The notes beneath the pieces are model-generated. The model did no database searches. It was not told the origin of the DNA and saw only the letters and a list, made by a program, of their open reading frames with translations. From assembly GCA_001805465.1 (NCBI GenBank), contig MHGH01000005.1, positions 1 through 49,952 of the forward strand: a stretch of DNA of 49,952 nucleotides, given 5' to 3'. Positions 1,104-46,041 of the stretch are shown in pieces; position 1 is the first letter of the stretch; every line of letters begins with the position of its first letter. The position numbers and the translations under genes were made by a program. Source of the DNA: Omnitrophica WOR_2 bacterium RBG_13_41_10. GTDB taxonomy: Bacteria > Omnitrophota > Gorgyraeia > Gygaellales > Profunditerraquicolaceae.

Positions 1104-2613
1104 AAATGTCTTGGTTATCGACGATGAATTAGTACTCTGCGAACTCCTCAATGATTTATTAAAAGATAGAGGCTATAGCGTGAAATATGCCTTATCAGGA
1201 AGAAACGGCATTAATACCTTTAAGGGGGGCGGTTTTGATCTGGTGATGCTGGATTTAAAGATGCCTGATATGGATGGCATAAACGTGCTAGAAGAGATTA
1301 AAGGGTTTGATCCGGATAGCGCGGTGATTATTATGACCGGGTACCCCTCTTTTGAGACTGTCCGGGCGGCATTAAGAGGGGGGGCCTATGATTATGTTAC
1401 CAAGCCCTTTAATATAGAAGAGATATCTTTTGTGATAAAAAGGGCAGTTGACTTTAGGAATCTTTCTCTTACTAACAAGAGCTTAATGAAAGAGCTGGAA
1501 GAGCAGAATAATAAACTGGAAGAGATGGTAAAAGAAAGAACAAGAGAGCTGATCCTGCTTTATAGAATAGGCAAAGACATGTCCTCTAGCCTGAAGCTAG
1601 ATGAGGTATTAGAGATTGTTGTAGATAATATGAGTAAAATCATGGATTCGGAAATATGTTCTATCCTCTTATTAGACAAGAATACTGAAGAATTATCAAT
1701 TGGATATGCTCAGGGATTAGAAGAGAATATTGTTCGCCAGACAAGAATGAGAAAGGGAGATCCGATCTCAGGGTGGGTGGTGGAACACGGCGAACCGCTT
1801 TTAGTAGATGATATTGAGACCGACCCTAGATTTATGAAAAAGAATCAAGAGAAATATTATACCAAATCTTTAATCAGCGTACCTTTATTAGTTAAGGATG
1901 AGGTTATCGGAGTAATCAATATTAACAATAAGAGGACAAAGACGCCTTTTACTAAAGATGATTTGAGATTCGCAAAAGGGGTAGCTACTGAAGCTGCCAT
2001 TGCCATAGAAAATGCCCGGTTATTTACTTCACTTGAAGATAGCTACATGCGTACGGTTCTAGCTTTGACTTCGGCTATCGATGCCAAAGATCATTATACC
2101 AAGAGTCATTCCGAACATGTTTCTAAATATGCGGTAGGTACGGCTATGGAGCTTGGACTTTCGGATAAGCAAATAGAAGATATTAAAGAAGCCTGCCGTT
2201 TGCATGACTTAGGTAAAATAGGGGTACCCGATGATATCCTGACTAAAACGGATAAACTAACAGCCAACGAGTGGGACCAGATCAAATTGCATTCCTTAAA
2301 GAGTGCAGAGATATTAAGGCCGCTGATTTTTTTAGGCGACGTTATTGATATAGTTGAGCAGCATCATGAGCGCTACGATGGAGCCGGTTATCCGCACGGA
2401 CTTAGAGGAGAACAGATACATATGGGTGCCAGAATTTTGGCGGTCTGCGATTCCTTTGATGCCATGACCACAGATAGGCCTTATCGTAAAGCCCTTTCTC
2501 AAGATGAGGCCGTGGCCGAAATTAAGAAATGCAGCGGTAGTCAATTTGATCCTAAGGTGGTAGAGGCCTTTTTGCGACTATTAGAAAAAAACCCGGAGAT
2601 TGCAAAAAATTAA
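1093..2613 (+). CDS. Response regulator with REC-GAF-HD-GYP architecture (putative c-di-GMP phosphodiesterase)
   Basis: N-terminal receiver (VLVIDDE, MLDLKMPDMDG, TKPF), a central GAF-like region, and C-terminal HDLGKIGVPD plus HHERYDGAGYPHGL (HD-GYP signature). It overlaps the upstream receiver gene by 11 nt. Confidence 0.85.
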   Translation: MANENVLVIDDELVLCELLNDLLKDRGYSVKYALSGRNGINTFKGGGFDLVMLDLKMPDMDGINVLEEIKGFDPDSAVIIMTGYPSFETVRAALRGGAYDYVTKPFNIEEISFVIKRAVDFRNLSLTNKSLMKELEEQNNKLEEMVKERTRELILLYRIGKDMSSSLKLDEVLEIVVDNMSKIMDSEICSILLLDKNTEELSIGYAQGLEENIVRQTRMRKGDPISGWVVEHGEPLLVDDIETDPRFMKKNQEKYYTKSLISVPLLVKDEVIGVININNKRTKTPFTKDDLRFAKGVATEAAIAIENARLFTSLEDSYMRTVLALTSAIDAKDHYTKSHSEHVSKYAVGTAMELGLSDKQIEDIKEACRLHDLGKIGVPDDILTKTDKLTANEWDQIKLHSLKSAEILRPLIFLGDVIDIVEQHHERYDGAGYPHGLRGEQIHMGARILAVCDSFDAMTTDRPYRKALSQDEAVAEIKKCSGSQFDPKVVEAFLRLLEKNPEIAKN

Positions 2614-2642
2614 AATGAGATTTTATTTTAAGGAGGCAGACA

Positions 2643-3128
2643 ATGGATGAAATATTGGAGATTTTAGAAAAAGATGCGCGGATTACCCCGGAAGAAATCG
2701 CCAAGATGCTAAAAGAACCGGCCCAAAAGATTAAAGAGACAATAAAAAAGTATGAAAAAGAAGGAGTGATATTAAAATATAAGACGGTCCTGAATAAGCA
2801 ATTATTTAAAGACGAGGATACTAGCGTCAGGGCCTTAATCGAGGTCAATATTACCCCGCAAAAAGACGTGGGTTTTGACAAAATTGCCGAACGCATCTAT
2901 TCGTTTGCGGAAGTCACCAGCTGCTATCTTATTTCAGGGACATATGATCTTTTGGTGGTAATAGAAGGCAAAAACATCCATGCGGTTTCTAATTTCGTAG
3001 CGGAAAAACTTTCTTGCCTGGAAAATGTGCGAGGTACGGTAACGCATTTTTTACTAAAAAAATACAAAGAAGACGGAGTAGTTTTAAAACATAAGGAAGA
3101 AAATAAAAGGATAGCAATATCGTACTAA
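2643..3128 (+). CDS. Lrp/AsnC family transcriptional regulator
   Basis: N-terminal HTH (ILEILEKDARITPEEIAKML) plus a C-terminal RAM/AsnC-type ligand domain. The stop abuts the start of the aminotransferase gene (TAA ATG). Confidence 0.8.
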   Translation: MDEILEILEKDARITPEEIAKMLKEPAQKIKETIKKYEKEGVILKYKTVLNKQLFKDEDTSVRALIEVNITPQKDVGFDKIAERIYSFAEVTSCYLISGTYDLLVVIEGKNIHAVSNFVAEKLSCLENVRGTVTHFLLKKYKEDGVVLKHKEENKRIAISY

Positions 3129-4289
3129 ATGAAAAATATTATTTCTAAAAAAGTTCAAGAGATGCAGCCATCCGGCATCCGGGCATTTTTTGACCTGGTG
3201 CTAGGGATGAAGGAGGTTATCTCTTTAGGAGTAGGAGAGCCGGATTTTGTTACCCCTTGGCAGATCCGCGAGGCAGGGATATCTTCTTTGGAGGAGGGAT
3301 TTACTTCTTATACCTCTAATAAAGGCCTTTATAAATTAAGGTTAACTATCAGTAACTATTTAAAGAATAGGTACGGCTTAGAATATTGCCCAGATGAAGA
3401 AATTCTCATTACCGTCGGAGTAAGTGAAGGCCTGGATTTAACCTTAAGGGCAATTGTGGAACCCGGCGATAAAATTATTGTGCCGCAACCTAGTTACGTC
3501 TCTTACGGCCCGGTAGCAGAATTAGCAGGGGCAGAGGTTACCTATATTGATACGCAAAAAACCAACTTTAAGCTCACACCCGGCCTATTAGAAAAACATA
3601 TTGATAAGAAGACCAAGGCCATCATTTTAAATTATCCCAATAACCCTACCGGAGTCTCTTATAATAAAAAAGAACTAAGCCAAATCCACAAAGTTCTATT
3701 AAAACATAATGTGCTTTGTATTTCTGATGAGGTATATGGAGATTTGACTTATGATTTTTCGCACATCCCTTTTCCTACGTTTCCTAAGGCAAAAGAGAAT
3801 ACTATGTATCTGAACGGATTCTCCAAGGCTTATGCTATGACTGGTTGGCGCGTAGGCTACGCTTGCGGCCCCAAAGAAATAATCGCAGCCATGACGAAAA
3901 TACATCAGTACACTATTATGTGCGTTTCTATCACCAGTCAAATGGCAGCATGCGAAGCACTGCATTCAGGTAAGAGGTCCTTAGAAGAGATGAAACGCGA
4001 ATATCGTAGGCGTAGGGAATTCGTAGTAGACAGATTTGGTGAAATAGGCTTAGAATGTAGAAAACCGCAGGGTGCTTTTTATGCTTTCGTTTGCATAAAA
4101 AATAGCGGCCTTAAGGCATTAGAGTTTGCCCGGAAACTGCTCAAAGAAGAAAATGTCGCGGTTGTTCCGGGGACTGCTTTTGGCAGTCAATTCGACGATT
4201 ATATCCGCGTATCTTATGCCTCCAGCTACGATAACTTAAAAGAGGCATTGGCAAGAATAGAAAAATTTGTAAAGAAAATCAAAAGATAG
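3129..4289 (+). CDS. Class I/II PLP-dependent aminotransferase (aspartate/alanine aminotransferase-like)
   Basis: YPNNPTG motif and the PLP-lysine motif SKAYAMTGWRVGY. About 386 aa, typical for the family. Confidence 0.85.
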   Translation: MKNIISKKVQEMQPSGIRAFFDLVLGMKEVISLGVGEPDFVTPWQIREAGISSLEEGFTSYTSNKGLYKLRLTISNYLKNRYGLEYCPDEEILITVGVSEGLDLTLRAIVEPGDKIIVPQPSYVSYGPVAELAGAEVTYIDTQKTNFKLTPGLLEKHIDKKTKAIILNYPNNPTGVSYNKKELSQIHKVLLKHNVLCISDEVYGDLTYDFSHIPFPTFPKAKENTMYLNGFSKAYAMTGWRVGYACGPKEIIAAMTKIHQYTIMCVSITSQMAACEALHSGKRSLEEMKREYRRRREFVVDRFGEIGLECRKPQGAFYAFVCIKNSGLKALEFARKLLKEENVAVVPGTAFGSQFDDYIRVSYASSYDNLKEALARIEKFVKKIKR

Positions 4290-4300
4290 GAGTTAAAGGC

Positions 4301-5629
4301 ATGAAGCCAAAAACCAATAGTGATGTTATGAAGTTAGTAAAAGAGAAAAAAGTAAGGTATATCAGGTTGTGGTTTACCGACGTATTGGGGTTCTTAAAAG
4401 GGTTTACCATAACTGTAAATGAACTGCCGCGCGCTTTAGGCGACGGCATGGGTTTTGACGGCTCTTCTATTGAAGGCTTTGCGCGCATAGAAGAATCTGA
4501 TATGATTGCCCGGCCTGATATAAGCACCTTTAAAATACTACCTTGGGAATCTAAAGAGCAGCCGGTAGCGCGCATGTTTTGCGATATTTATACCCCTGGC
4601 GGCAGGCCTTTTCCAGGGGACCCCCGCTATATTTTAAAAAAGAATTTAGGGCGCGCTAAAAAAATGGGATATACCTATTATGTGGGCCCGGAATTAGAAT
4701 ATTTTTATTTTAATAACCCCAAGAATGCCATTATTCTGGATAAGGGAGGGTATTTTGATTTAACCCCTTTAGATCTTGCCCAGAGTGTGCGCAATGAAAC
4801 CGTCAATGCCCTGGAAGATTTAGGCATTATCGTAGAATACAGCCATCACGAAGTAGCCTCCAGCCAGCATGAAATTGATTTAAGGTATTCCGAGGCCTTA
4901 TCTATGGCAGACAATGTGATGACTTATAGATTAGTGGCCAAGGAGATTGCGCAGGCAAAGGGCTTACACGCTTCCTTTATGCCTAAGCCGGTTTATGGGA
5001 TTAATGGTTCGGGTATGCACACACACCAATCGTTATTTAAAGGTTCAGCCAACGCCTTTTTCGATAAAAAAGAAAAATACCATCTTTCCAAGATTGCCAA
5101 GCATTTTATCGCCGGCCTGTTAAAACATTCTCCGGAGATAGCCTCGGTGACTAACCAATGGGTTAATTCTTATAAGCGCTTGGTGCCGGGTTATGAAGCG
5201 CCGGTATATATCTGTTGGGCGCAGATGAACCGCTCGGCATTAATAAGAGTACCGATGTATAAGCCGGGAAAAGAAAAAGCCACGCGCATGGAGTATCGTT
5301 CACCTGATCCGGCTTGTAATCCGTACCTGGCATTCTCCGTCATGCTTGCAGCAGGCCTGGAAGGAATGGAAAAGAAATATTCGCTTCCTGACCCGGCAAA
5401 CGATAATATTTATCATATGAGCGAGGAACAGAGAGAGCGTGCCAAAATAAAATCCCTACCAGAAGACTTATTGGAGGCAATTAAATTAACGGAGAAATCC
5501 GAGCTTGTGAAGAAGACGCTAGGGGAAGAGCTGTTTAATTTCTTTATCCGTAATAAAAAAATGGAGTGGGATGAATACAAGGCACAGGTGACCCAATACG
5601 AAATAGACAAGTACCTGCCGATATTATAA
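4301..5629 (+). CDS. glnA: Glutamine synthetase, type I
   Basis: FDGSSIEGF, NGSGMHTHQSL, and a conserved C-terminal catalytic region. 442 aa. Confidence 0.93.
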   Translation: MKPKTNSDVMKLVKEKKVRYIRLWFTDVLGFLKGFTITVNELPRALGDGMGFDGSSIEGFARIEESDMIARPDISTFKILPWESKEQPVARMFCDIYTPGGRPFPGDPRYILKKNLGRAKKMGYTYYVGPELEYFYFNNPKNAIILDKGGYFDLTPLDLAQSVRNETVNALEDLGIIVEYSHHEVASSQHEIDLRYSEALSMADNVMTYRLVAKEIAQAKGLHASFMPKPVYGINGSGMHTHQSLFKGSANAFFDKKEKYHLSKIAKHFIAGLLKHSPEIASVTNQWVNSYKRLVPGYEAPVYICWAQMNRSALIRVPMYKPGKEKATRMEYRSPDPACNPYLAFSVMLAAGLEGMEKKYSLPDPANDNIYHMSEEQRERAKIKSLPEDLLEAIKLTEKSELVKKTLGEELFNFFIRNKKMEWDEYKAQVTQYEIDKYLPIL

Positions 5630-12523: not shown

Positions 12524-12709
12524 TTAGCAGGTCCTGGCTTGGTTTGTTTCTCGCGGGGACGCTCTCCCCGCCCCTGCGAGGCGGAGATTCGCTCCCCTGC
12601 GGTGTCTCGCTCTCACCGACTATCTTTTAGCAGGTGAACCATGCCCGCTCGTCATCCTCGGAGGCCCCGTTCGAAATCAAACCAAGCCACCCGCTAAGAC
12701 CAGTTTTTT
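12524..12709 (+). ncRNA. Candidate structured ncRNA of unknown class (GC-rich, ~175 nt). Strand is tentative
   Basis: A perfect 12-bp closing helix (12535-12546 pairs with 12678-12689) extends outward with irregularities to 12524/12697. The interior is far more GC-rich than the flanks and holds the hairpin GCGGGGA-CGCTC-TCCCCGC (12553-12571). A T6 run lies at 12704-12709. A possible promoter is TTCGCA (12497), 16 nt, TATATT (12519). Confidence 0.35.
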
Positions 12710-14959: not shown

Positions 14960-15876
14960 ATTTGGTTTTGTATGGTAAGTGCCACAGCAAGTGCATCTTT
15001 GGCCACCGTTCCCGAAACCAGGGGCTCTTTATGTTCGATTACACAATTCAGGAATGATTCCAGCTCTTTTTGCAACGGCTGTTCTTTTTCAATGGGGAGG
15101 TTTTCTTTGCTGATAGAAAGGAGATTTTTTCTATAAACACAGGCTTTTGCCTCTTTGTAATCTAAGGATATATAGGTATTTTCCTGAAATATCCTGATTT
15201 TTCGCATGGTTTCATCCGAGACACGGCTGGCGGTAAGGTTTGCTACACATCCGTTTTCAAAAGTAATGCGGGCATTGGCAATATCTTCGAATTTTGTTAA
15301 AACCGGCACTCCTACTGCTTCGATTTTACTGACAGCGCAGTCTACTAACCCCAAAACAATATCAATATCGTGAATCATGAGGTCTAGAACTACCCCGATA
15401 TCAAGTGAGCGGTTGGGGAAAGGGCTTAAGCGGTGGCATTCGATAAATTTGGGGTTTTTGATTAGTTTATGCGTAGCATTGAATGCGGAATTAAATCTTT
15501 CTATATGGCCGACCTGCAGGATTAAATTATTTTCTTTAGCAGTTTGGATAAGTAAATCTGCCTCTTTAAGGTCTGCGGTAAAGGGTTTCTCTACCAGCAC
15601 GTGAATTTTTTCCTTTAGGAACTCTTCGGCTATTTTGTAATGCAGCTTGGTAGGTACAGCGATGCTTACTGCCTCTACCTGAGTGAAAAGTTCCCGGTAA
15701 TCCGTTTTGCCGGGTACAGCGAGGGTTTGGGATATTTCCTTCAGCCGGTTTTTATCGGTATCACAAACAGCCGCTAAATTACAGTTTTGGCTGGCTTTAT
15801 ATATTTTGGCATGGAGGCTGCCTAGATGCCCTACTCCTATTACCGCCACATTAGGTTTACGCATGAAAAAAATCAT
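14947..15876 (-). CDS. Gfo/Idh/MocA family NAD(P)-dependent oxidoreductase (possibly UDP-GlcNAc 3-dehydrogenase GnnA-like)
   Basis: N-terminal Rossmann fold VAVIGVGHLGSLHA and an EKPF motif. It overlaps lpxB by 13 nt. An alternative start lies at 15864. Confidence 0.8.
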   Translation of the reverse strand: MIFFMRKPNVAVIGVGHLGSLHAKIYKASQNCNLAAVCDTDKNRLKEISQTLAVPGKTDYRELFTQVEAVSIAVPTKLHYKIAEEFLKEKIHVLVEKPFTADLKEADLLIQTAKENNLILQVGHIERFNSAFNATHKLIKNPKFIECHRLSPFPNRSLDIGVVLDLMIHDIDIVLGLVDCAVSKIEAVGVPVLTKFEDIANARITFENGCVANLTASRVSDETMRKIRIFQENTYISLDYKEAKACVYRKNLLSISKENLPIEKEQPLQKELESFLNCVIEHKEPLVSGTVAKDALAVALTIQNQIWQK

Positions 15877-39042: not shown

Positions 39043-39848
39043 TTGATAAAATTATAGTATTTATCTTTGGTTCTATAGTAGGCAGTTTCTTAAACGTCTG
39101 TATCCACAGGATGCCTTTGGGTGAATCGGTGGTCTGGCCGCGTTCGCATTGCCCTAAATGCAAAAAAAGAATTCCCGGTTACGACAATATCCCTTTTTTA
39201 AGTTATATACTTTTAAAAGGCAGGTGCCGTTTCTGCAAAGAAAAGATTTCGCTGCGATATTTAATAGTAGAGTTCCTTACTGCGTTTATCTTCCTGGTCT
39301 TTTATTATCGTTACGGATTAACCTTTGATTTCTTTTTCTATATATTTTTCGCCTCTAATTTAATTGTCGCTACTTTTGTGGATATCAAACACCGCATTAT
39401 TCCGGATGAGATATCTATCGGCGGGATGATTTTGGGGTTTATTCTTTCTTCCGTCAAGGGAGTGAATCTGGGGCCGTTTAACTATAATTTTTGGCCGATG
39501 CTTAATTCGTTTTTAGGAATCATTATCGGCGGAGGGGTAATTTATTTAACCGGGATTATTTTTGATTTAATTTACTTTAAATTAATGAAAAGGCCCCCTA
39601 TTCAGGGAGAAACCGAATCCATGGGAGGAGGAGACGTAAAGCTACTGGCGATGATCGGGGCTTTTTTAGGTTGGCAAAAGGCCCTTTTAACTTTTTTCCT
39701 GGCGCCTTTCTTTGGGGCAATTATTGGCACCATAAACCTTATTATCAAGAAGGACCATACTATTCCTTACGGCCCCTTTTTATCGGTGGCAGCGATTATG
39801 TCTCTTTATTGGGCTGACAGAATAATCTATTTAATATTTCTTAGATGA
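39039..39848 (+). CDS. pilD: Prepilin (type IV) leader peptidase / N-methyltransferase, A24 family
   Basis: CPKC...CRFC zinc motif, multi-pass membrane topology, GGGDVKLLA catalytic Asp motif. ATGA overlaps at both ends. Confidence 0.88.
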   Translation: MIDKIIVFIFGSIVGSFLNVCIHRMPLGESVVWPRSHCPKCKKRIPGYDNIPFLSYILLKGRCRFCKEKISLRYLIVEFLTAFIFLVFYYRYGLTFDFFFYIFFASNLIVATFVDIKHRIIPDEISIGGMILGFILSSVKGVNLGPFNYNFWPMLNSFLGIIIGGGVIYLTGIIFDLIYFKLMKRPPIQGETESMGGGDVKLLAMIGAFLGWQKALLTFFLAPFFGAIIGTINLIIKKDHTIPYGPFLSVAAIMSLYWADRIIYLIFLR

Positions 39849-41638
39849 AGGAAGCCGGGAGTAAATGGCAGAGAATTGGCGAGGCTAAAAGGGCCGGGGT
39901 TTTGGTACCTTTATTTTCGGTATATTCCCGCCAAAGCATAGGTATTGCTGATTTTAGTGACTTAAAATTAGTGGTAGATTGGAGTGAGCGTAGCGGTAAC
40001 TCCATTATACAACTTCTTCCTTTAAATGAAGTAGGCTCTTATTTTTGCCCTTACGATTCCTTAAGTTCTTTTGCCCTGGAACCTGCCTATATTTGCCTAG
40101 AAAATATCCCTCATCGCAACAAAGATGCTATTAAGTTTAAGATTAATAAAATAAAAGAAGCCTATCCTCTGGGCGGCCATGTAGATTACCGGATCAGAAA
40201 AGAAAAAATCAACCTCTTGCGACAGATATATGCCCAAGAGGAGGAATTTGTCCATCCTGACTTTAGGAACTTTAAGGAAAAAAATACTTACTGGCTGGAA
40301 GATTTCGCGCTTTTTAAGGTGATTAAGGAATATTTTAAGGGAAGGGCCTGGTATGAATGGGAGGATGGCTACAAAAGGCGCGATAAAACATTATTGGATA
40401 TTTTTAAAAAACAATATTCCAAAGAAATTGATTTTCAGGTCTGGGCGCAGTGGCATCTTTATCAACAACTAAAAGAGGTAAAGCAATATGCCGCCAAGAA
40501 AGGCGTATTGCTCAAAGGAGATTTACCGATTCTGGTTTCTCGCGATAGCGCGGATGTCTGGGCGCACCCGGATTTCTTTAAATTAGAATTTTCCGCCGGA
40601 GCGCCACCTGATATGTATTGCGCCAAGGGCCAGCGCTGGGGTATGCCTACTTATAATTGGGAGAAAATAGCTCAAGATGATTACAGGTATCTTAAGGAAA
40701 AACTGCATTATGCCCAGGAGTTTTATCATATCTTACGCATAGACCATGTAGTAGGATTATTTCGCATCTGGAGTATACCTTATCAGGAAACAGAAGAAAA
40801 CAGAGGCCTAAACGGATTTTTTGATCCTGCGGATGAAAAGGCCTGGGGTGAACACGGCAGAAAAATATTATCCGTGATGTTAGAAAACACGGATATGCTT
40901 TTGTGCGCCGAGGATTTAGGCATTATACCGAAGGCCTGCCCCCGGACCCTTAAGGAATTAGGTATTCCGGGAAATGACGTGCAGCGTTGGGTAAAAGACT
41001 GGGCAGTGAAGCATGATTTTCTGGAGCCTGACAAATACCGTGCCTTGACCGTGGCAATGTTATCCACACACGATACCACTAATTGGGCAGCCTGGTGGGA
41101 GCATGAGGCCGGCACAGTAGATGAAGCGCTTTTTATCAGCAAATGCCGGGATCGCGGCATAGATTATATTCATATCAAAGACCAGCTTTTTGATTTGAAT
41201 TTTCCCTGCCGCACCAGATTACGTTGGTTAAACAGCGTAAACTCCGTAGATAAACTAGTGGGAACTTTGGGAAAGAGAAAAGAAGAGGTCAGGGATTTTA
41301 TTGATATGTATGAGAATACCTATCAAGAAAAGGAAAAGCTTTGGAAACATCTGGGCTTCGTGGGGAAAATGCAGGAGAAGGCGGATGCAGAAATCGTCAG
41401 GGCGGCCTTAAAAATAACCTTGGATTCACAGGCCATATTCTGTATTCAGTTAATCATAGATTGGCTGATGTTATCCGATATCTTTAAAGGGGATCCTTAC
41501 GAATACAGGATTAATATCCCCGGCACCATCAGCCCTTATAACTGGTCGCTGACCATTCCTATTCCTCTTGAAGATTTGCTCAAACATAAAGTCACAGAAG
41601 ATATCCGCGCGTTGATAAAAGAGGCGGGTAGAATTTAG
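39845..41638 (+). CDS. malQ: 4-alpha-glucanotransferase (amylomaltase, GH77)
   Basis: RIDHVVGLFRIW, CAEDLG and STHDT catalytic-region motifs. 597 aa. Confidence 0.88.
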   Translation: MKEAGSKWQRIGEAKRAGVLVPLFSVYSRQSIGIADFSDLKLVVDWSERSGNSIIQLLPLNEVGSYFCPYDSLSSFALEPAYICLENIPHRNKDAIKFKINKIKEAYPLGGHVDYRIRKEKINLLRQIYAQEEEFVHPDFRNFKEKNTYWLEDFALFKVIKEYFKGRAWYEWEDGYKRRDKTLLDIFKKQYSKEIDFQVWAQWHLYQQLKEVKQYAAKKGVLLKGDLPILVSRDSADVWAHPDFFKLEFSAGAPPDMYCAKGQRWGMPTYNWEKIAQDDYRYLKEKLHYAQEFYHILRIDHVVGLFRIWSIPYQETEENRGLNGFFDPADEKAWGEHGRKILSVMLENTDMLLCAEDLGIIPKACPRTLKELGIPGNDVQRWVKDWAVKHDFLEPDKYRALTVAMLSTHDTTNWAAWWEHEAGTVDEALFISKCRDRGIDYIHIKDQLFDLNFPCRTRLRWLNSVNSVDKLVGTLGKRKEEVRDFIDMYENTYQEKEKLWKHLGFVGKMQEKADAEIVRAALKITLDSQAIFCIQLIIDWLMLSDIFKGDPYEYRINIPGTISPYNWSLTIPIPLEDLLKHKVTEDIRALIKEAGRI

Positions 41639-41643
41639 AGATA

Positions 41644-41810
41644 TTTTATGGTTTCGCTTTTCGCGTGCTGAAATTTTTTGCCGTGTACTTCGGTTTACGG
41701 CTCTCTCTCGGAGAGACCTTACACGGGAGCACAATCCTCCGTTCGCCGTAATCCCTCATACACTTTTGCCAAAAAATTTCTAATGCACGCTCTAAGCGAA
41801 ACGCATAAAA
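41644..41810. repeat. 167-nt element bounded by ~37-nt terminal inverted repeats, with a GC-rich structured core (MITE-like or ncRNA)
   Basis: 41644-41680 pairs with 41770-41810, about 33 bp with one bulge and one 3x3 loop. The core contains a C(UUCG)G-capped hairpin (41681-41700) and CUCUCU/GAGAGA (41704-41718). Confidence 0.6.
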
Positions 41811-41961
41811 TTTTAATTATAGCAATTGGCTAAAACCTCCATTCGCTCGTAAAATCGCCAGCTTCATTTTGTAAAAGAATAAAAATGAAGCTGTTATAAT
41901 CTAGGGTAGTACTCTTGGGAAAACGTCTCCATAACCCTATAGAGCGATGATTTAATTAGTA

Positions 41962-41990
41962 TTGACAAGAGAGGAATTCTGTGATACATT
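41962..41990 (+). promoter_or_regulatory. Sigma70-like promoter candidate upstream of the NYN gene leader
   Basis: TTGACA (41962-41967), 17-nt spacer, extended -10 TGaTACATT (hexamer at 41985-41990). Confidence 0.5.
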
Positions 41991-42028
41991 TTAATTGTCA
42001 TCCCGATAGAACCTAAAGTTTTATCGGC

Positions 42029-42059
42029 CCCGGGCTCCTGAGAGTTCGGGATTTTTTTT
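42029..42059 (+). terminator. Intrinsic terminator inside the leader of the NYN gene
   Basis: 9-bp stem CCCGGGCUC/GAGUUCGGG (two G-U pairs), CUGA loop, then A plus T8. It ends 15 nt before the ATG at 42075. Confidence 0.7.
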
Positions 42060-42074
42060 AGAGATCAATAAGTT

Positions 42075-42686
42075 ATGAAGAAAGTTATAGCCTTAGTTGA
42101 CGGATTCAACATCTACCACTCATTAGATGAAAATCAATCTTTTCGTAAATATAAATGGCTAAATCTTAGAAGATTAACAGAACTTTTTATTGGGAAAGAT
42201 GAAGAATTAGGAGATGTTCTTTATTTTTCCGCATATGCTTTTTGGGAGCCAGATAAAGTTGCGAGACATAAGATCTATATAAATGCTCTAATGACAGCAA
42301 ATGTAACACCTATTCTTTCAGAATTTAAACAGAAAGATAGAAAATGCAAAGAGTGTGGCAAAGTATATAAGAGTTATGAAGAAAAACAAACTGATGTGCA
42401 AATAGCAATAAATTTATTTAAAGTAGCAATTGATGGTATATATGAAAAGGCAGTAGTTATTTCAGGAGATAGCGATTTAATTCCGGCGCTACGAGCAGTA
42501 AAAGCAAAATTCCCCTTAAAGAAGATACATCTCTTATTCCCGCCGAACAGAGCAGGCGAGTCATTAAAGAGAGTCGCCGATTCGTATTCCAGGATCAGAG
42601 AAAAACATTTAGCAGGCGCTCAATTCCCCGATGTTATTGATTTAGGAAACAACCAGACTTTAACTAAACCTTCTGAGTGGAAATAG
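42075..42686 (+). CDS. NYN (LabA/DUF88-like) domain nuclease with an inserted Cys-pair element
   Basis: VDGFNIYH, EKQTDVQIAI and ISGDSDLIPAL acidic motifs typical of NYN/PIN-like RNases. A CKECGK pair lies between them. Confidence 0.7.
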   Translation: MKKVIALVDGFNIYHSLDENQSFRKYKWLNLRRLTELFIGKDEELGDVLYFSAYAFWEPDKVARHKIYINALMTANVTPILSEFKQKDRKCKECGKVYKSYEEKQTDVQIAINLFKVAIDGIYEKAVVISGDSDLIPALRAVKAKFPLKKIHLLFPPNRAGESLKRVADSYSRIREKHLAGAQFPDVIDLGNNQTLTKPSEWK

Positions 42687-42796
42687 CCTGTGTCCAAAAC
42701 GCGTCCATTCAATTTCATAACTATTTCTTAAATCCGCGCTATAAAAATCCCTGTTAGATTTCCTCATTTCTTACGTCTATTAACGCCTTAAATCCA

Positions 42797-42825
42797 TTAC
42801 CATTTTGAAATGGAAGTGGTATAAT
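42797..42825 (+). promoter_or_regulatory. Promoter candidate for the thioesterase gene
   Basis: TTACCA (42797-42802), 17-nt spacer, extended -10 TGgTATAAT (hexamer at 42820-42825). Confidence 0.5.
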
Positions 42826-42855
42826 TGGAAAAGCAATAGTTAACAAAAGGAAAAT

Positions 42856-43272
42856 ATGGGTAATATTAAATTGGAGGATGATAAGAATTGTTTTGTTTGT
42901 GGCGATAAGAACAGCTACGGACTCCGGCTTAGGTTTACAATTGATAAAGATAATACAATGCATACAGAGTTTATGCCCCAAAAACATCATCAGGGTTTTA
43001 AGGATATTGTGCATGGTGGTTTAATCGGACTTATCTTAGATGAAATTATGGTTAATCTGGCATGGAAAATGGGGAAGAACGTTGTTACTGCTGAGTTTAA
43101 TGTTAGGCTAAAGAGAATAGCTAAAGTTCAAGAGAAACTTTTATTTAGAGGATGGATAGATAGAGAAGACAACAAGATAATCTATACTAAAGCTGAAGCA
43201 AAAAATGAGCATGGAACAATTATTGCTCTTGCAAATGCAAAGTGTTTCAAAGTAAAGGAGCAATTTAAGTAA
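42856..43272 (+). CDS. Hotdog-fold (PaaI-like) thioesterase
   Basis: CFVCGDKNSYGLRLRF and HGGLIGLILDEIM, typical of PaaI/4HBT-type thioesterases. 138 aa. Confidence 0.65.
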   Translation: MGNIKLEDDKNCFVCGDKNSYGLRLRFTIDKDNTMHTEFMPQKHHQGFKDIVHGGLIGLILDEIMVNLAWKMGKNVVTAEFNVRLKRIAKVQEKLLFRGWIDREDNKIIYTKAEAKNEHGTIIALANAKCFKVKEQFK

Positions 43273-43328
43273 TTATTGTAGCGGGTGGGGAGGAATAGGT
43301 TCAAGCGGGGCGGAGGTAAGGAGGAAGG

Positions 43329-43584: not shown

Positions 43585-43633
43585 GGGGTCAGAATTATTT
43601 TCTGCCCTAGTAAATAATTCCGACCCCGTTTTT
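43585..43633 (+). terminator. Hairpin-terminator repeat, copy 2 of the GGGGTCAGAATTATTT family
   Basis: GGGGTCAGAATTATTT (43585-43600) pairs with AAATAATTCCGACCCC (43612-43627), one A.C mismatch, followed by GTTTTT. The conserved 16-mer CTAAACAGCGATAAAA lies at 43644-43659. Confidence 0.75.
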
Positions 43634-43674
43634 ACTATTTTTACTAAACAGCGATAAAAAAGGAGGTAGTAAGA

Positions 43675-45239: not shown

Positions 45240-45890
45240 ATGCTTTACTTATATTTAGATGAAAGCGGAGATTTAGGTTTTGATTTTATAACCAAAAAGC
45301 CATCAAAATTCTTTACTATAACAGTTCTTTTAATTAAAGGGCAAAGTAATAACCGGATATTAATAAATGCTATTAAACATACCTTAAAGCGTAAATTAAG
45401 AAAGAAGAAGCTTTTTAAGAAATCTTCTTGCGAATTAAAAGGAAGTAAAGTTTCTTTTGAGGTAAAGAAATATTTTTATGGGCAAGTAGAAAAGCTGGAT
45501 TTTAAGTTATATGCCCTTACTTTGAATAAAAAAAGACTATATAAAGACTTGATGAAAGCAAAAGAAAGAATTTATAATTACATAGCAAGGTTAGTTTTAG
45601 ATCAGATAAACTTTGACGATGCGCAAGCAAGAGTTATTTTGATATTAGATAAAAGTAAAGGTAAGCCAGAAATCGCCGATTTTAATTCCTATATTTTTAG
45701 TCAAATTAAAGCTAAGATCAATCCAAGAATACCTTTAGACATTTATCATGGTTTGTCGCATGAAAATTTAGGGTTGCAAGCAGTTGATGTGTTCGCGTGG
45801 GGAATATTTAGGAAGTATGAAAAACGGGATTTAGAGTGGTTTAATGTGTTTAAGGGCAAAATTACTTATGACGATGTTTATCTCCCCTAA
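45240..45890 (+). CDS. DUF3800 domain protein
   Basis: The N-terminal LYLDESGDLGF motif is characteristic of DUF3800. 216 aa. No SD precedes the ATG. Confidence 0.65.
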   Translation: MLYLYLDESGDLGFDFITKKPSKFFTITVLLIKGQSNNRILINAIKHTLKRKLRKKKLFKKSSCELKGSKVSFEVKKYFYGQVEKLDFKLYALTLNKKRLYKDLMKAKERIYNYIARLVLDQINFDDAQARVILILDKSKGKPEIADFNSYIFSQIKAKINPRIPLDIYHGLSHENLGLQAVDVFAWGIFRKYEKRDLEWFNVFKGKITYDDVYLP

Positions 45891-46041
45891 AATAAAAACG
45901 AGCGTGCCCTACAGGTTTTTAACGTTTAGGCTCTTGCCCACCATACGGAGGGGAACACCTAAAACAACCCATAGCGGTCTTACCGCTCAACAATAAGTAT
46001 ATTCGGTAAAGTGTATTTTGTCAAGAAATTTATTCTAAAGA

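Follow-up and report, generated by a model that had tools for sequence, protein, structure and literature searches.

The window analysed here is a stretch of 49,952 nt from an Omnitrophota genome (G000; 1.3 Mb, 22 contigs, 80% complete). Five nucleotides past the stop codon of malQ lies a 168-nt element, which we found to be a member of a hairpin repeat family, family A, and which folds as one long imperfect hairpin (Table 1). Its 5′ and 3′ ends read TTTTATGGTTTCGC...GCGAAACGCATAAAAT, and an A/T-rich run follows on the 3′ side. The initial annotation had described AT-rich arms, pairing almost perfectly in blocks, around a GC-rich core, and this description is sound: on the plus strand, paired blocks of 8 (7) + 9, 6 and 11 bp are interrupted by a single bulge, a 3x3 loop and a 1x4 loop, and the arms have a GC content of 35% and 34%, compared to 54% in the 89-nt core. 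On either strand, and whether RNA or DNA parameters were used, none of 200 dinucleotide-preserving shuffles folded as well as the element (z = -8.95 on the plus and -9.24 on the minus strand with RNA parameters, -7.85 and -9.52 with DNA parameters). The covariance model of the family (CM R1) scores the window copy at 155 bits (E = 6.5e-32). An Rfam search, which had been proposed as a check, gave no family within 41644-41811, whether the gathering threshold or E <= 10 was applied. A scan of both strands found neither promoter-like nor terminator-like sites in or beside the element; it listed no intrinsic terminator (G+C-rich stem plus U tract) there, and the stem is AU-rich at its base.

Table 1. 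Coordinates of family-A and family-B features in the window and elsewhere in its genome (G000), with the neighbouring genes
Feature	Coordinates	Strand	Remarks
malQ	39845..41638	+	GH77 4-alpha-glucanotransferase, 597 aa; upstream neighbour
Whole family-A hairpin repeat	41644..41811	+ (family-model orientation)	as a single strand, the window minus strand folds more stably
Outer stem, 5′ arm	41644..41659	+	partner 41794-41811; sequence differs between genera, pairing preserved
Helix 1, 5′ strand GCGTGC	41663..41668	+	partner 41785-41790; covaries as CGYRC/GYRCG
Helix 2, 5′ strand GAAATTTTTTG	41670..41680	+	perfect 11-bp match to 41770-41780
Helix 3, 5′ strand GTGTAC	41683..41688	+	partner 41758-41763
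Invariant core, 5′ side TTCGGTTTAC	41689..41698	+	consensus T-W-C-G-G-T-T-T-A-C; includes the 'UUCG' of the initial annotation
Apical variable domain	41699..41747	+	subfamily-specific hairpins, deletions, insertions in other copies
Invariant core, 3′ side GTAATCCCTC	41748..41757	+	family consensus GTAA-N-N-C-C-T-Y
Invariant asymmetric loop CTAAT	41780..41784	+	3′ side, junction of helix 2 and helix 1; alignment columns 266-271
Outer stem, 3′ arm	41794..41811	+	one bulged G
NYN-domain gene (42075-42686) and 4HBT thioesterase gene (42856-43272)	42075..43272	+	between A and the putative B remnant
Family-B 3′-arm remnant (tentative)	43275..43311	-	faces A at 1.46 kb, directly past the 4HBT stop codon
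Full family-A copies in G000	C5:41644-41811 (window); C21:76904-77071; C3:39273-39439		C21 96% and C3 77% identical
Lone right arm of family A in G000	C12:28465-28504		
Family-B sites in G000	window 12524-12709; C15:96728; C15:59069; C3:49515; C21:75656; C18:31130		

A search for further copies, also proposed initially, showed that G000 carries three full copies of family A and one remnant. The apical domain of the C3 copy differs from that of the window copy. The flanks of the three full copies are unrelated (malQ and the NYN gene, MurJ and DUF5677, Fic and a hypothetical gene), including those of the C5 and C21 copies, whose near-identity shows a recent duplication and begins and stops exactly at bases 41644 and 41811. 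The suggestion that the element is MITE-like is thereby borne out, in that it is multi-copy, dispersed and non-coding, has long inverted arms and recurs nearly unchanged between different flanks. We built a covariance model from 24 copies and searched 61 related genomes: family A is present in 30 of these, belonging to six families of the order, with 1-14 copies each, and has no copies in many near-complete relatives. Nearly all full matches are 160-190 nt long and a few with inserts reach about 250 nt; the covariance-model matches in the 61 genomes include no long version that carries a gene, and 164 loci yielded no orphan half-sites. The core pattern occurs at at least 120 sites in public assemblies, and among the matches listed most are titled Candidatus Omnitrophota, the rest being uncultured Planctomycetales or bacterium. 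The same pattern had no match in IMG/VR, and a literature search on Omnitrophota repeats found no description of such elements.

Family A also decays, leaving remnants and hairpin-deletion derivatives. One copy (locus L037) lacks exactly the apical domain. There are also 67-nt 'mini' derivatives (G011:C3:150385-150451, G011:C3:140342-140408 and G021:C15:26836-26899), consisting of the outer stem and helix 1 only, around a TGAAAATTTTCTAAT loop, with the entire interior deleted between both AAAATTTT arm segments. Apical and interior deletions of this kind are what slippage across a DNA hairpin would yield.

We examined covariation in 106 aligned copies over four modelled helices (28 pairs), with 500 shuffles and slid controls. 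In the helices 97.7% of the cells are paired, double changes occur at 21 of the 28 pairs and 394 cells are compensated; none of the 500 shuffles reaches these values and the slid controls come nowhere near them. Helix 3, for instance, reads GTSYRC/GYRSAC across the family, with many double changes. Family A thus keeps a precise rod fold by strictly Watson-Crick compensation around about 20 unpaired bases that do not change. Between the helices, C50, T58, C60, GG, TTTAC, GTAA, CCT and the CTAAT loop are invariant, with T58, C60, G61, G62, T64 and T65 identical in 104-106 of the 106 copies, and the outer stem and the apical domain vary freely. The changes go almost entirely from one Watson-Crick pair to another: excluding one position, at which an invariant G stands opposite any base, we counted 2814 Watson-Crick, 15 G·T and 15 A·C cells (0.5% each). 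Since the small bacterial SRP RNA (RF00169), which was matched in 11 of 14 control genomes, gave no match in any of the 61 Omnitrophota genomes at E <= 1e-5, we used 41 tRNAs from the same genomes and loci as the control for wobble pairs. Their stems contain 4.2% G·U and 1.3% A·C, and the wobble frequency differs from that of family A (Fisher p = 2e-11). As G·T is no commoner than A·C on either strand, family A is unlike ordinary structured RNAs, as would be expected of a DNA hairpin. Independently of family A, the SRP RNA of Omnitrophota may be divergent or of another type.

The two strands of the element are not equivalent. On the window plus strand every conserved mismatch sets a pyrimidine against a pyrimidine; on the minus strand the same positions are purine-purine and include tandem G·A opposite repeated TCGCT motifs. 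The minus strand is the more stable one in 127 of 140 copies (mean -63.1 vs -56.5 kcal/mol); hence, one specific strand seems to matter. Covarying stems around invariant loops are also expected of a functional RNA, and tandem purine-purine mismatches stabilize RNA as well as DNA. The initial annotation had taken a C(UUCG)G tetraloop in the core as a sign of selection at the RNA level. The CCGUGUAC-UUCG-GUUUACGG hairpin can be drawn in the window copy, as can a CUCUCU/GAGAGA hairpin; in the family alignment, however, the segment is CTWCGG, in which CTW is part of an internal loop and GG pairs with CC, and no tetraloop is formed. The cUUCGg hairpin is incidental, since its ACGG partner is confined to one subfamily. 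With the tetraloop unconserved across the family, the UUCG offers no evidence of RNA-level selection. Wobble pairs are unenriched on either strand.

Compared with both flanking genes, 66 copies have the same orientation, 36 the opposite one and 19 are mixed. Co-directional genes flank most copies, which often lie 5-40 nt past a stop codon, and most adjoin housekeeping genes on both sides; no recurrent neighbouring protein was found among these neighbours. The flanks hold no conserved sequence apart from pieces of other repeats: two flank motifs, TTTTCTCGCTC and GAGCGGGCA, were considered as extensions of family A and rejected, as they are pieces of a second family (family B, below). Because neither the outer 20 nt nor the flanks are conserved, the copies do not share a promoter. 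A strict replication-strand bias was likewise rejected, since both orientations occur within 30-60 kb on single contigs; the local GC skew merely mirrors gene orientation.

Some junctions recur. An element lies between cysS and tmk in five genomes, antisense every time, and past malQ in three genomes including G000, sense every time. The comparison of the malQ downstream region that had been proposed found the same junction and orientation in two other genomes, and a metagenome scan found no malQ allele without the element. The same junction and orientation in several genera could mean that the element has a cis function in transcripts. In a tree of family A, copies cluster by genome and not by locus, even at the cysS/tmk and malQ junctions, which suggests re-insertion or gene conversion among copies. 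No target-site duplication or conserved target was seen at the near-identical copies in G000 and G021; an automatic search for the ends, in which the fold was extended, was noisy and brought up no duplication that recurred consistently.

The overall plan of the element had been likened to that of a stretch at 12524-12709 of the window. This stretch, on the plus strand, is a full copy of the second hairpin family, family B (about 175 nt, arms TTAGCGGGTCCTGGCTTGG...CCAAGCCACCCGCTAA), and does not match the covariance model of family A. Family B has 10 BLAST matches in G000 and matches in 27 of the 61 relatives. The kinship is real but takes an unexpected form, in that B is the usual facing partner of A. 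Among the 36 A copies with a B hit in the same locus, 31 are followed on their 3′ side by a B on the other strand (binomial p = 2e-14, with four equally likely arrangements as the null). In 24 of these facing pairs the two hairpins are 13-99 nt apart, and in the other seven 0.6-1.9 kb apart, enclosing one or two accessory ORFs; the cargo includes DUF5677 and Fic (both in G000), an HNH protein and several ORFans. Family A therefore habitually faces B across either a short spacer or a slot with one or two accessory genes. Pairs of A copies within 1 kb are convergent in four of four cases. B shares the strand asymmetry of A, its minus strand being the stronger one in 31 of 32 copies; a doublet therefore has one strong hairpin on each strand, both running away from its centre.

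The doublet also appears to move as such. The MurJ junction of one genome holds an empty doublet, A and B separated by 54 nt, and that of G000 reads B-DUF5677-A. G021 contains several A-spacer-B doublets in which the 17-nt spacer is identical and the flanks differ, and the doublet has thus been copied as a unit. The C21 and C3 copies of A are nested inside B-type outer arms. A cassette-array-like layout was seen at positions 2530-5465 of locus L162 (MAG SRP098346_co1_343), downstream of a Macro/NUDIX gene, where ORFs of 131-167 aa alternate with three A copies that share one strand and are each enclosed by B-like outer arms. In the window, the putative B remnant facing the element is a weak match (27 of 37 positions identical to the reverse-complemented B ends; E = 1 in nhmmer for the window as a whole). 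By analogy with the seven A-cargo-B cases, the NYN and 4HBT genes may tentatively be regarded as the cargo of such a bracket.

We looked for an enzyme that could mobilize these hairpins. Y1/RAYT proteins (PF01797) are encoded in 45 of the 61 genomes, with four genes in G000, and are absent from 11 of the 30 genomes carrying family A, including three with nine A copies each. The four Y1 genes of G000 are flanked by their own short REP-like hairpins, without a match to A or B. With neither co-occurrence nor a flanking relation, Y1/RAYT was rejected as the mover of A, although the copies may be fossils that outlived a lost RAYT enzyme. An integron integrase was also rejected: TIGR02249 passes its cut-off in one of the 61 genomes. 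That sole bona fide integron integrase (G024:C84:10544-11503, 402 bits) lies in a genome with one A copy and seven B matches. No protein gene was found in G000 in the multiple copies expected of an insertion sequence, the paralogue pairs checked by Pfam being only glutamine synthetase and response regulator, and no parent insertion sequence with ends matching A was found in the 61 relatives or the 164 loci. As a separate observation, inverted 35-nt hairpins (GGGACAC...GTGTCCC) flank a Y1_Tnp gene of G000 (C10:14871-14912 and 15490-15531; L196 372-413 and 991-1032); they have at least 13 copies in this genome, have a classical REP-RAYT look and are unrelated to A or B.

Taken together, the element past malQ is probably a copy of an Omnitrophota-specific, non-autonomous single-stranded DNA (ssDNA) hairpin interspersed repeat of the MITE/ERIC/REPIN kind, as its family occurs in both orientations relative to neighbouring genes and shows no promoter-like site. 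The selected form would be a hairpin extruded from one single DNA strand, since the conserved mismatches are of one class on each strand. A trans-acting protein would recognize this hairpin and copy or move either it or the A-spacer-B doublet, with insertion into short intergenic gaps and without an obvious target duplication. The window copy would have been inserted in this way 5 nt past malQ. It and the decayed B arm at 43275-43311 may be the two sides of a bracket around the NYN and thioesterase genes, on the margin of a low-GC accessory stretch. An effect on the malQ mRNA (3′ stabilization or partial termination), if there is one, would be a by-product of the insertion.

More speculatively, and with well below even chances, A and B could be the two ends of a previously unknown Omnitrophota ssDNA mobile system, whose mover would be neither Y1/RAYT nor an integron integrase. 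Each end would be a rod of ~170 nt, its strong strand pointing, 5′ to 3′, away from a slot in the middle. In its empty state (A-spacer-B, about 350 nt) the system would spread in a REPIN-like manner, and in its loaded state it would carry one or two accessory or defence-type genes (Fic, DUF5677, HNH, NYN).

The most serious alternative is that the hairpins are cis-acting structured RNA modules in read-through transcripts, selected as 3′ stabilizers, processing sites or cistron insulators and comparable to REP/BIME in E. coli mRNAs. The facing arrangement of A and B would then provide transcripts from either direction with one 'strong-strand' hairpin, and each cargo ORF in the A...B brackets does end at such a hairpin. 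The stems that covary around invariant loops, the many copies shortly past stop codons between co-directional genes and the junctions preserved with their orientation in several genera are all consistent with this possibility. However, G·U-type wobble is as rare as A·C in family A (0.5% each), compared to 4.2% G·U in tRNAs, and a lone A copy presents its weaker strand in two thirds of the would-be transcripts. The patchy distribution, with absence from many near-complete relatives, and the clustering of copies by genome rather than by locus also argue against it, and we regard a cis-RNA role as the selected function as unlikely.

Distinctly improbable, in our view, is that the hairpins are attC-like sites, that is, ssDNA substrates of an integron- or Xer-type tyrosine recombinase, and the A...B brackets gene cassettes. 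The imperfect palindrome, invariant unpaired bases, variable tip and strand bias would fit, as would the many A copies directly past ORFs, the alternation of three same-strand copies with small ORFs at L162 and the accessory-type cargo (Fic, DUF5677, HNH and ORFans). Against this, the integrase passes its cut-off in a single genome, the stem base carries no RYYYAAC/GTTRRRY boxes and is conserved least of all, most A copies are solitary and between housekeeping genes, and 165 nt exceeds known attC lengths.

The element could also belong to a family of independent sRNA genes with their own promoters, encoding a rod RNA (6S-like or Y-RNA-like) that is an RNP component. Its size, rod shape and invariant internal loops fit such an RNA, which, having no Rfam match, could be new; this reading is nevertheless very improbable, given the lack of promoter-like and terminator-like sites in or beside the element on either strand, the unconserved outer 20 nt and flanks, a copy number per genome that ranges from 0 to 14, the unenriched G·U and the persistence of core-less deletion derivatives. 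That the element is an oversized intrinsic terminator of malQ and nothing more is hardly credible: it does start 5 nt past the stop codon and is followed by an A/T-rich run, but the dispersal of the same element over more than 140 unrelated sites in both orientations contradicts it, as do the AU-rich stem base, a scan that finds nothing at the 3′ side and a separate canonical terminator at 42029-42050.

Returning to the ssDNA-repeat reading, family A is closest in kind to MITEs, ERIC/IRU and REPIN/BIME, and differs from each in what defines it. Classical bacterial MITEs, e.g., Correia/NEMIS of Neisseria, resemble family A in being non-autonomous, 100-300 bp long and intergenic, with terminal inverted arms and both orientations; the same holds of family A, whose multiple copies are short and non-coding, lie dispersed and end in inverted repeats. 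In contrast, neither a target-site duplication nor, in the 61 relatives and the 164 loci, a parent insertion sequence with a transposase was found for it, and its terminal bases are its least conserved part. Two copies of either can bracket a gene, as in MITE-flanked composite units, integron mobilization units among them (PMC10969869). The ERIC/IRU elements of Enterobacteriaceae and Vibrionaceae, intergenic imperfect palindromes of about 127 bp (PMC3184786, PMC2759123), share with family A the gene-less palindromic form of 100-200 nt, intergenic and often co-transcribed positions, a core conserved across genera with internal deletion and insertion variants, the lack of a known transposase and a low to moderate copy number. 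Family A occurs in a different phylum, has no sequence similarity to them, and differs by its strict Watson-Crick covariation, its invariant unpaired bases, its facing partner B and the cargo brackets.

REPINs and BIMEs consist of hairpin repeats in inverted pairs, set apart by a short spacer, and are associated with RAYT (TnpA-REP) transposases (PMC3116915, PMC3337134, PMC2817692). As with these, the A/B doublet duplicates as a unit, hairpins combine in mosaics and one-strand recognition is presumed; an inverted hairpin pair as the mobile unit is seen in the 31 of 36 A-B and four of four close A-A arrangements and in the common spacer of G021. On the other hand, each hairpin is 165-175 nt long (the A unit 160-190 nt) compared to 20-40 nt for REP, the two members of a doublet usually come from different families, and no cognate RAYT flanked by its own REPs accompanies A, PF01797 being absent from 11 of the 30 carriers. 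The derivatives of IS200/IS605 (PATEs), which rely on Y1 TnpA in trans and have their left-end and right-end hairpins on one strand beside a fixed tetra- or pentanucleotide target, are a poor fit too, as family A shows no Y1 association, the strong hairpins of the doublet are on opposite strands and no flank is conserved. With attC sites, family A shares a single-strand hairpin logic, the conservation of structure and unpaired bases over stem sequence, a variable tip and the position past ORFs; it differs in having no R or L boxes (R″/R′), in being mostly solitary and in that 60 of the 61 genomes have no integron integrase.

Taken alone, the copy past malQ is an ordinary member of family A. 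Its setting is of wider interest, since Omnitrophota have small, tightly packed genomes with almost no insertion sequences, yet they carry several families of large, precisely folded hairpins. Watson-Crick-only covariation and invariant loops, judged against tRNAs of the same bacteria, provide a simple yardstick for telling an ssDNA element from an RNA gene, which should keep such rods from being annotated as new small RNAs. If it is true that A/B pairs define slots for accessory genes, they would represent a gene-moving route in an uncultivated phylum, with a hairpin-recognizing enzyme to be found.

The element had further been proposed to mark the left border of an accessory stretch, and this holds in part. 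The GC content falls from about 0.43 before the element to 0.35-0.38 right after it, and accessory-looking genes come next: the low-GC stretch extends to about 46 kb and contains the NYN, 4HBT and DUF2007 genes, three ORFans and a DUF3800 gene. Most A copies elsewhere, however, lie between housekeeping genes.

Several smaller features lie in this part of the window. About 50 nt past the element, at 41859-41893, is a perfect inverted repeat of 12 bp (CAGCTTCATTTT / AAAATGAAGCTG) around an 11-nt loop, which was not flagged as a terminator. It is followed, at 41962-42058, by a near-consensus promoter (TTGACA-17-TACATT with TG) and then a strong intrinsic terminator, at 42029-42050 plus T8, just upstream of the NYN start codon at 42075; promoter and terminator may form a leader or attenuator. 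A short hairpin at 43586-43634 (GGGGTCAGAATTATTT...AAATAATTCCGACCCC) is probably a REP of a RAYT system, because it is like the ACGGGGTCAGAATTATTTTT repeats around the Y1 (RAYT-like) gene on C16 (L197). The last of these features, at the distal end of the low-GC stretch, is a DUF3800-V RNA motif (RF02964, 72.9 bits) at 45895-45994 on the minus strand, directly past the DUF3800 gene (45240-45890), which is on the plus strand.
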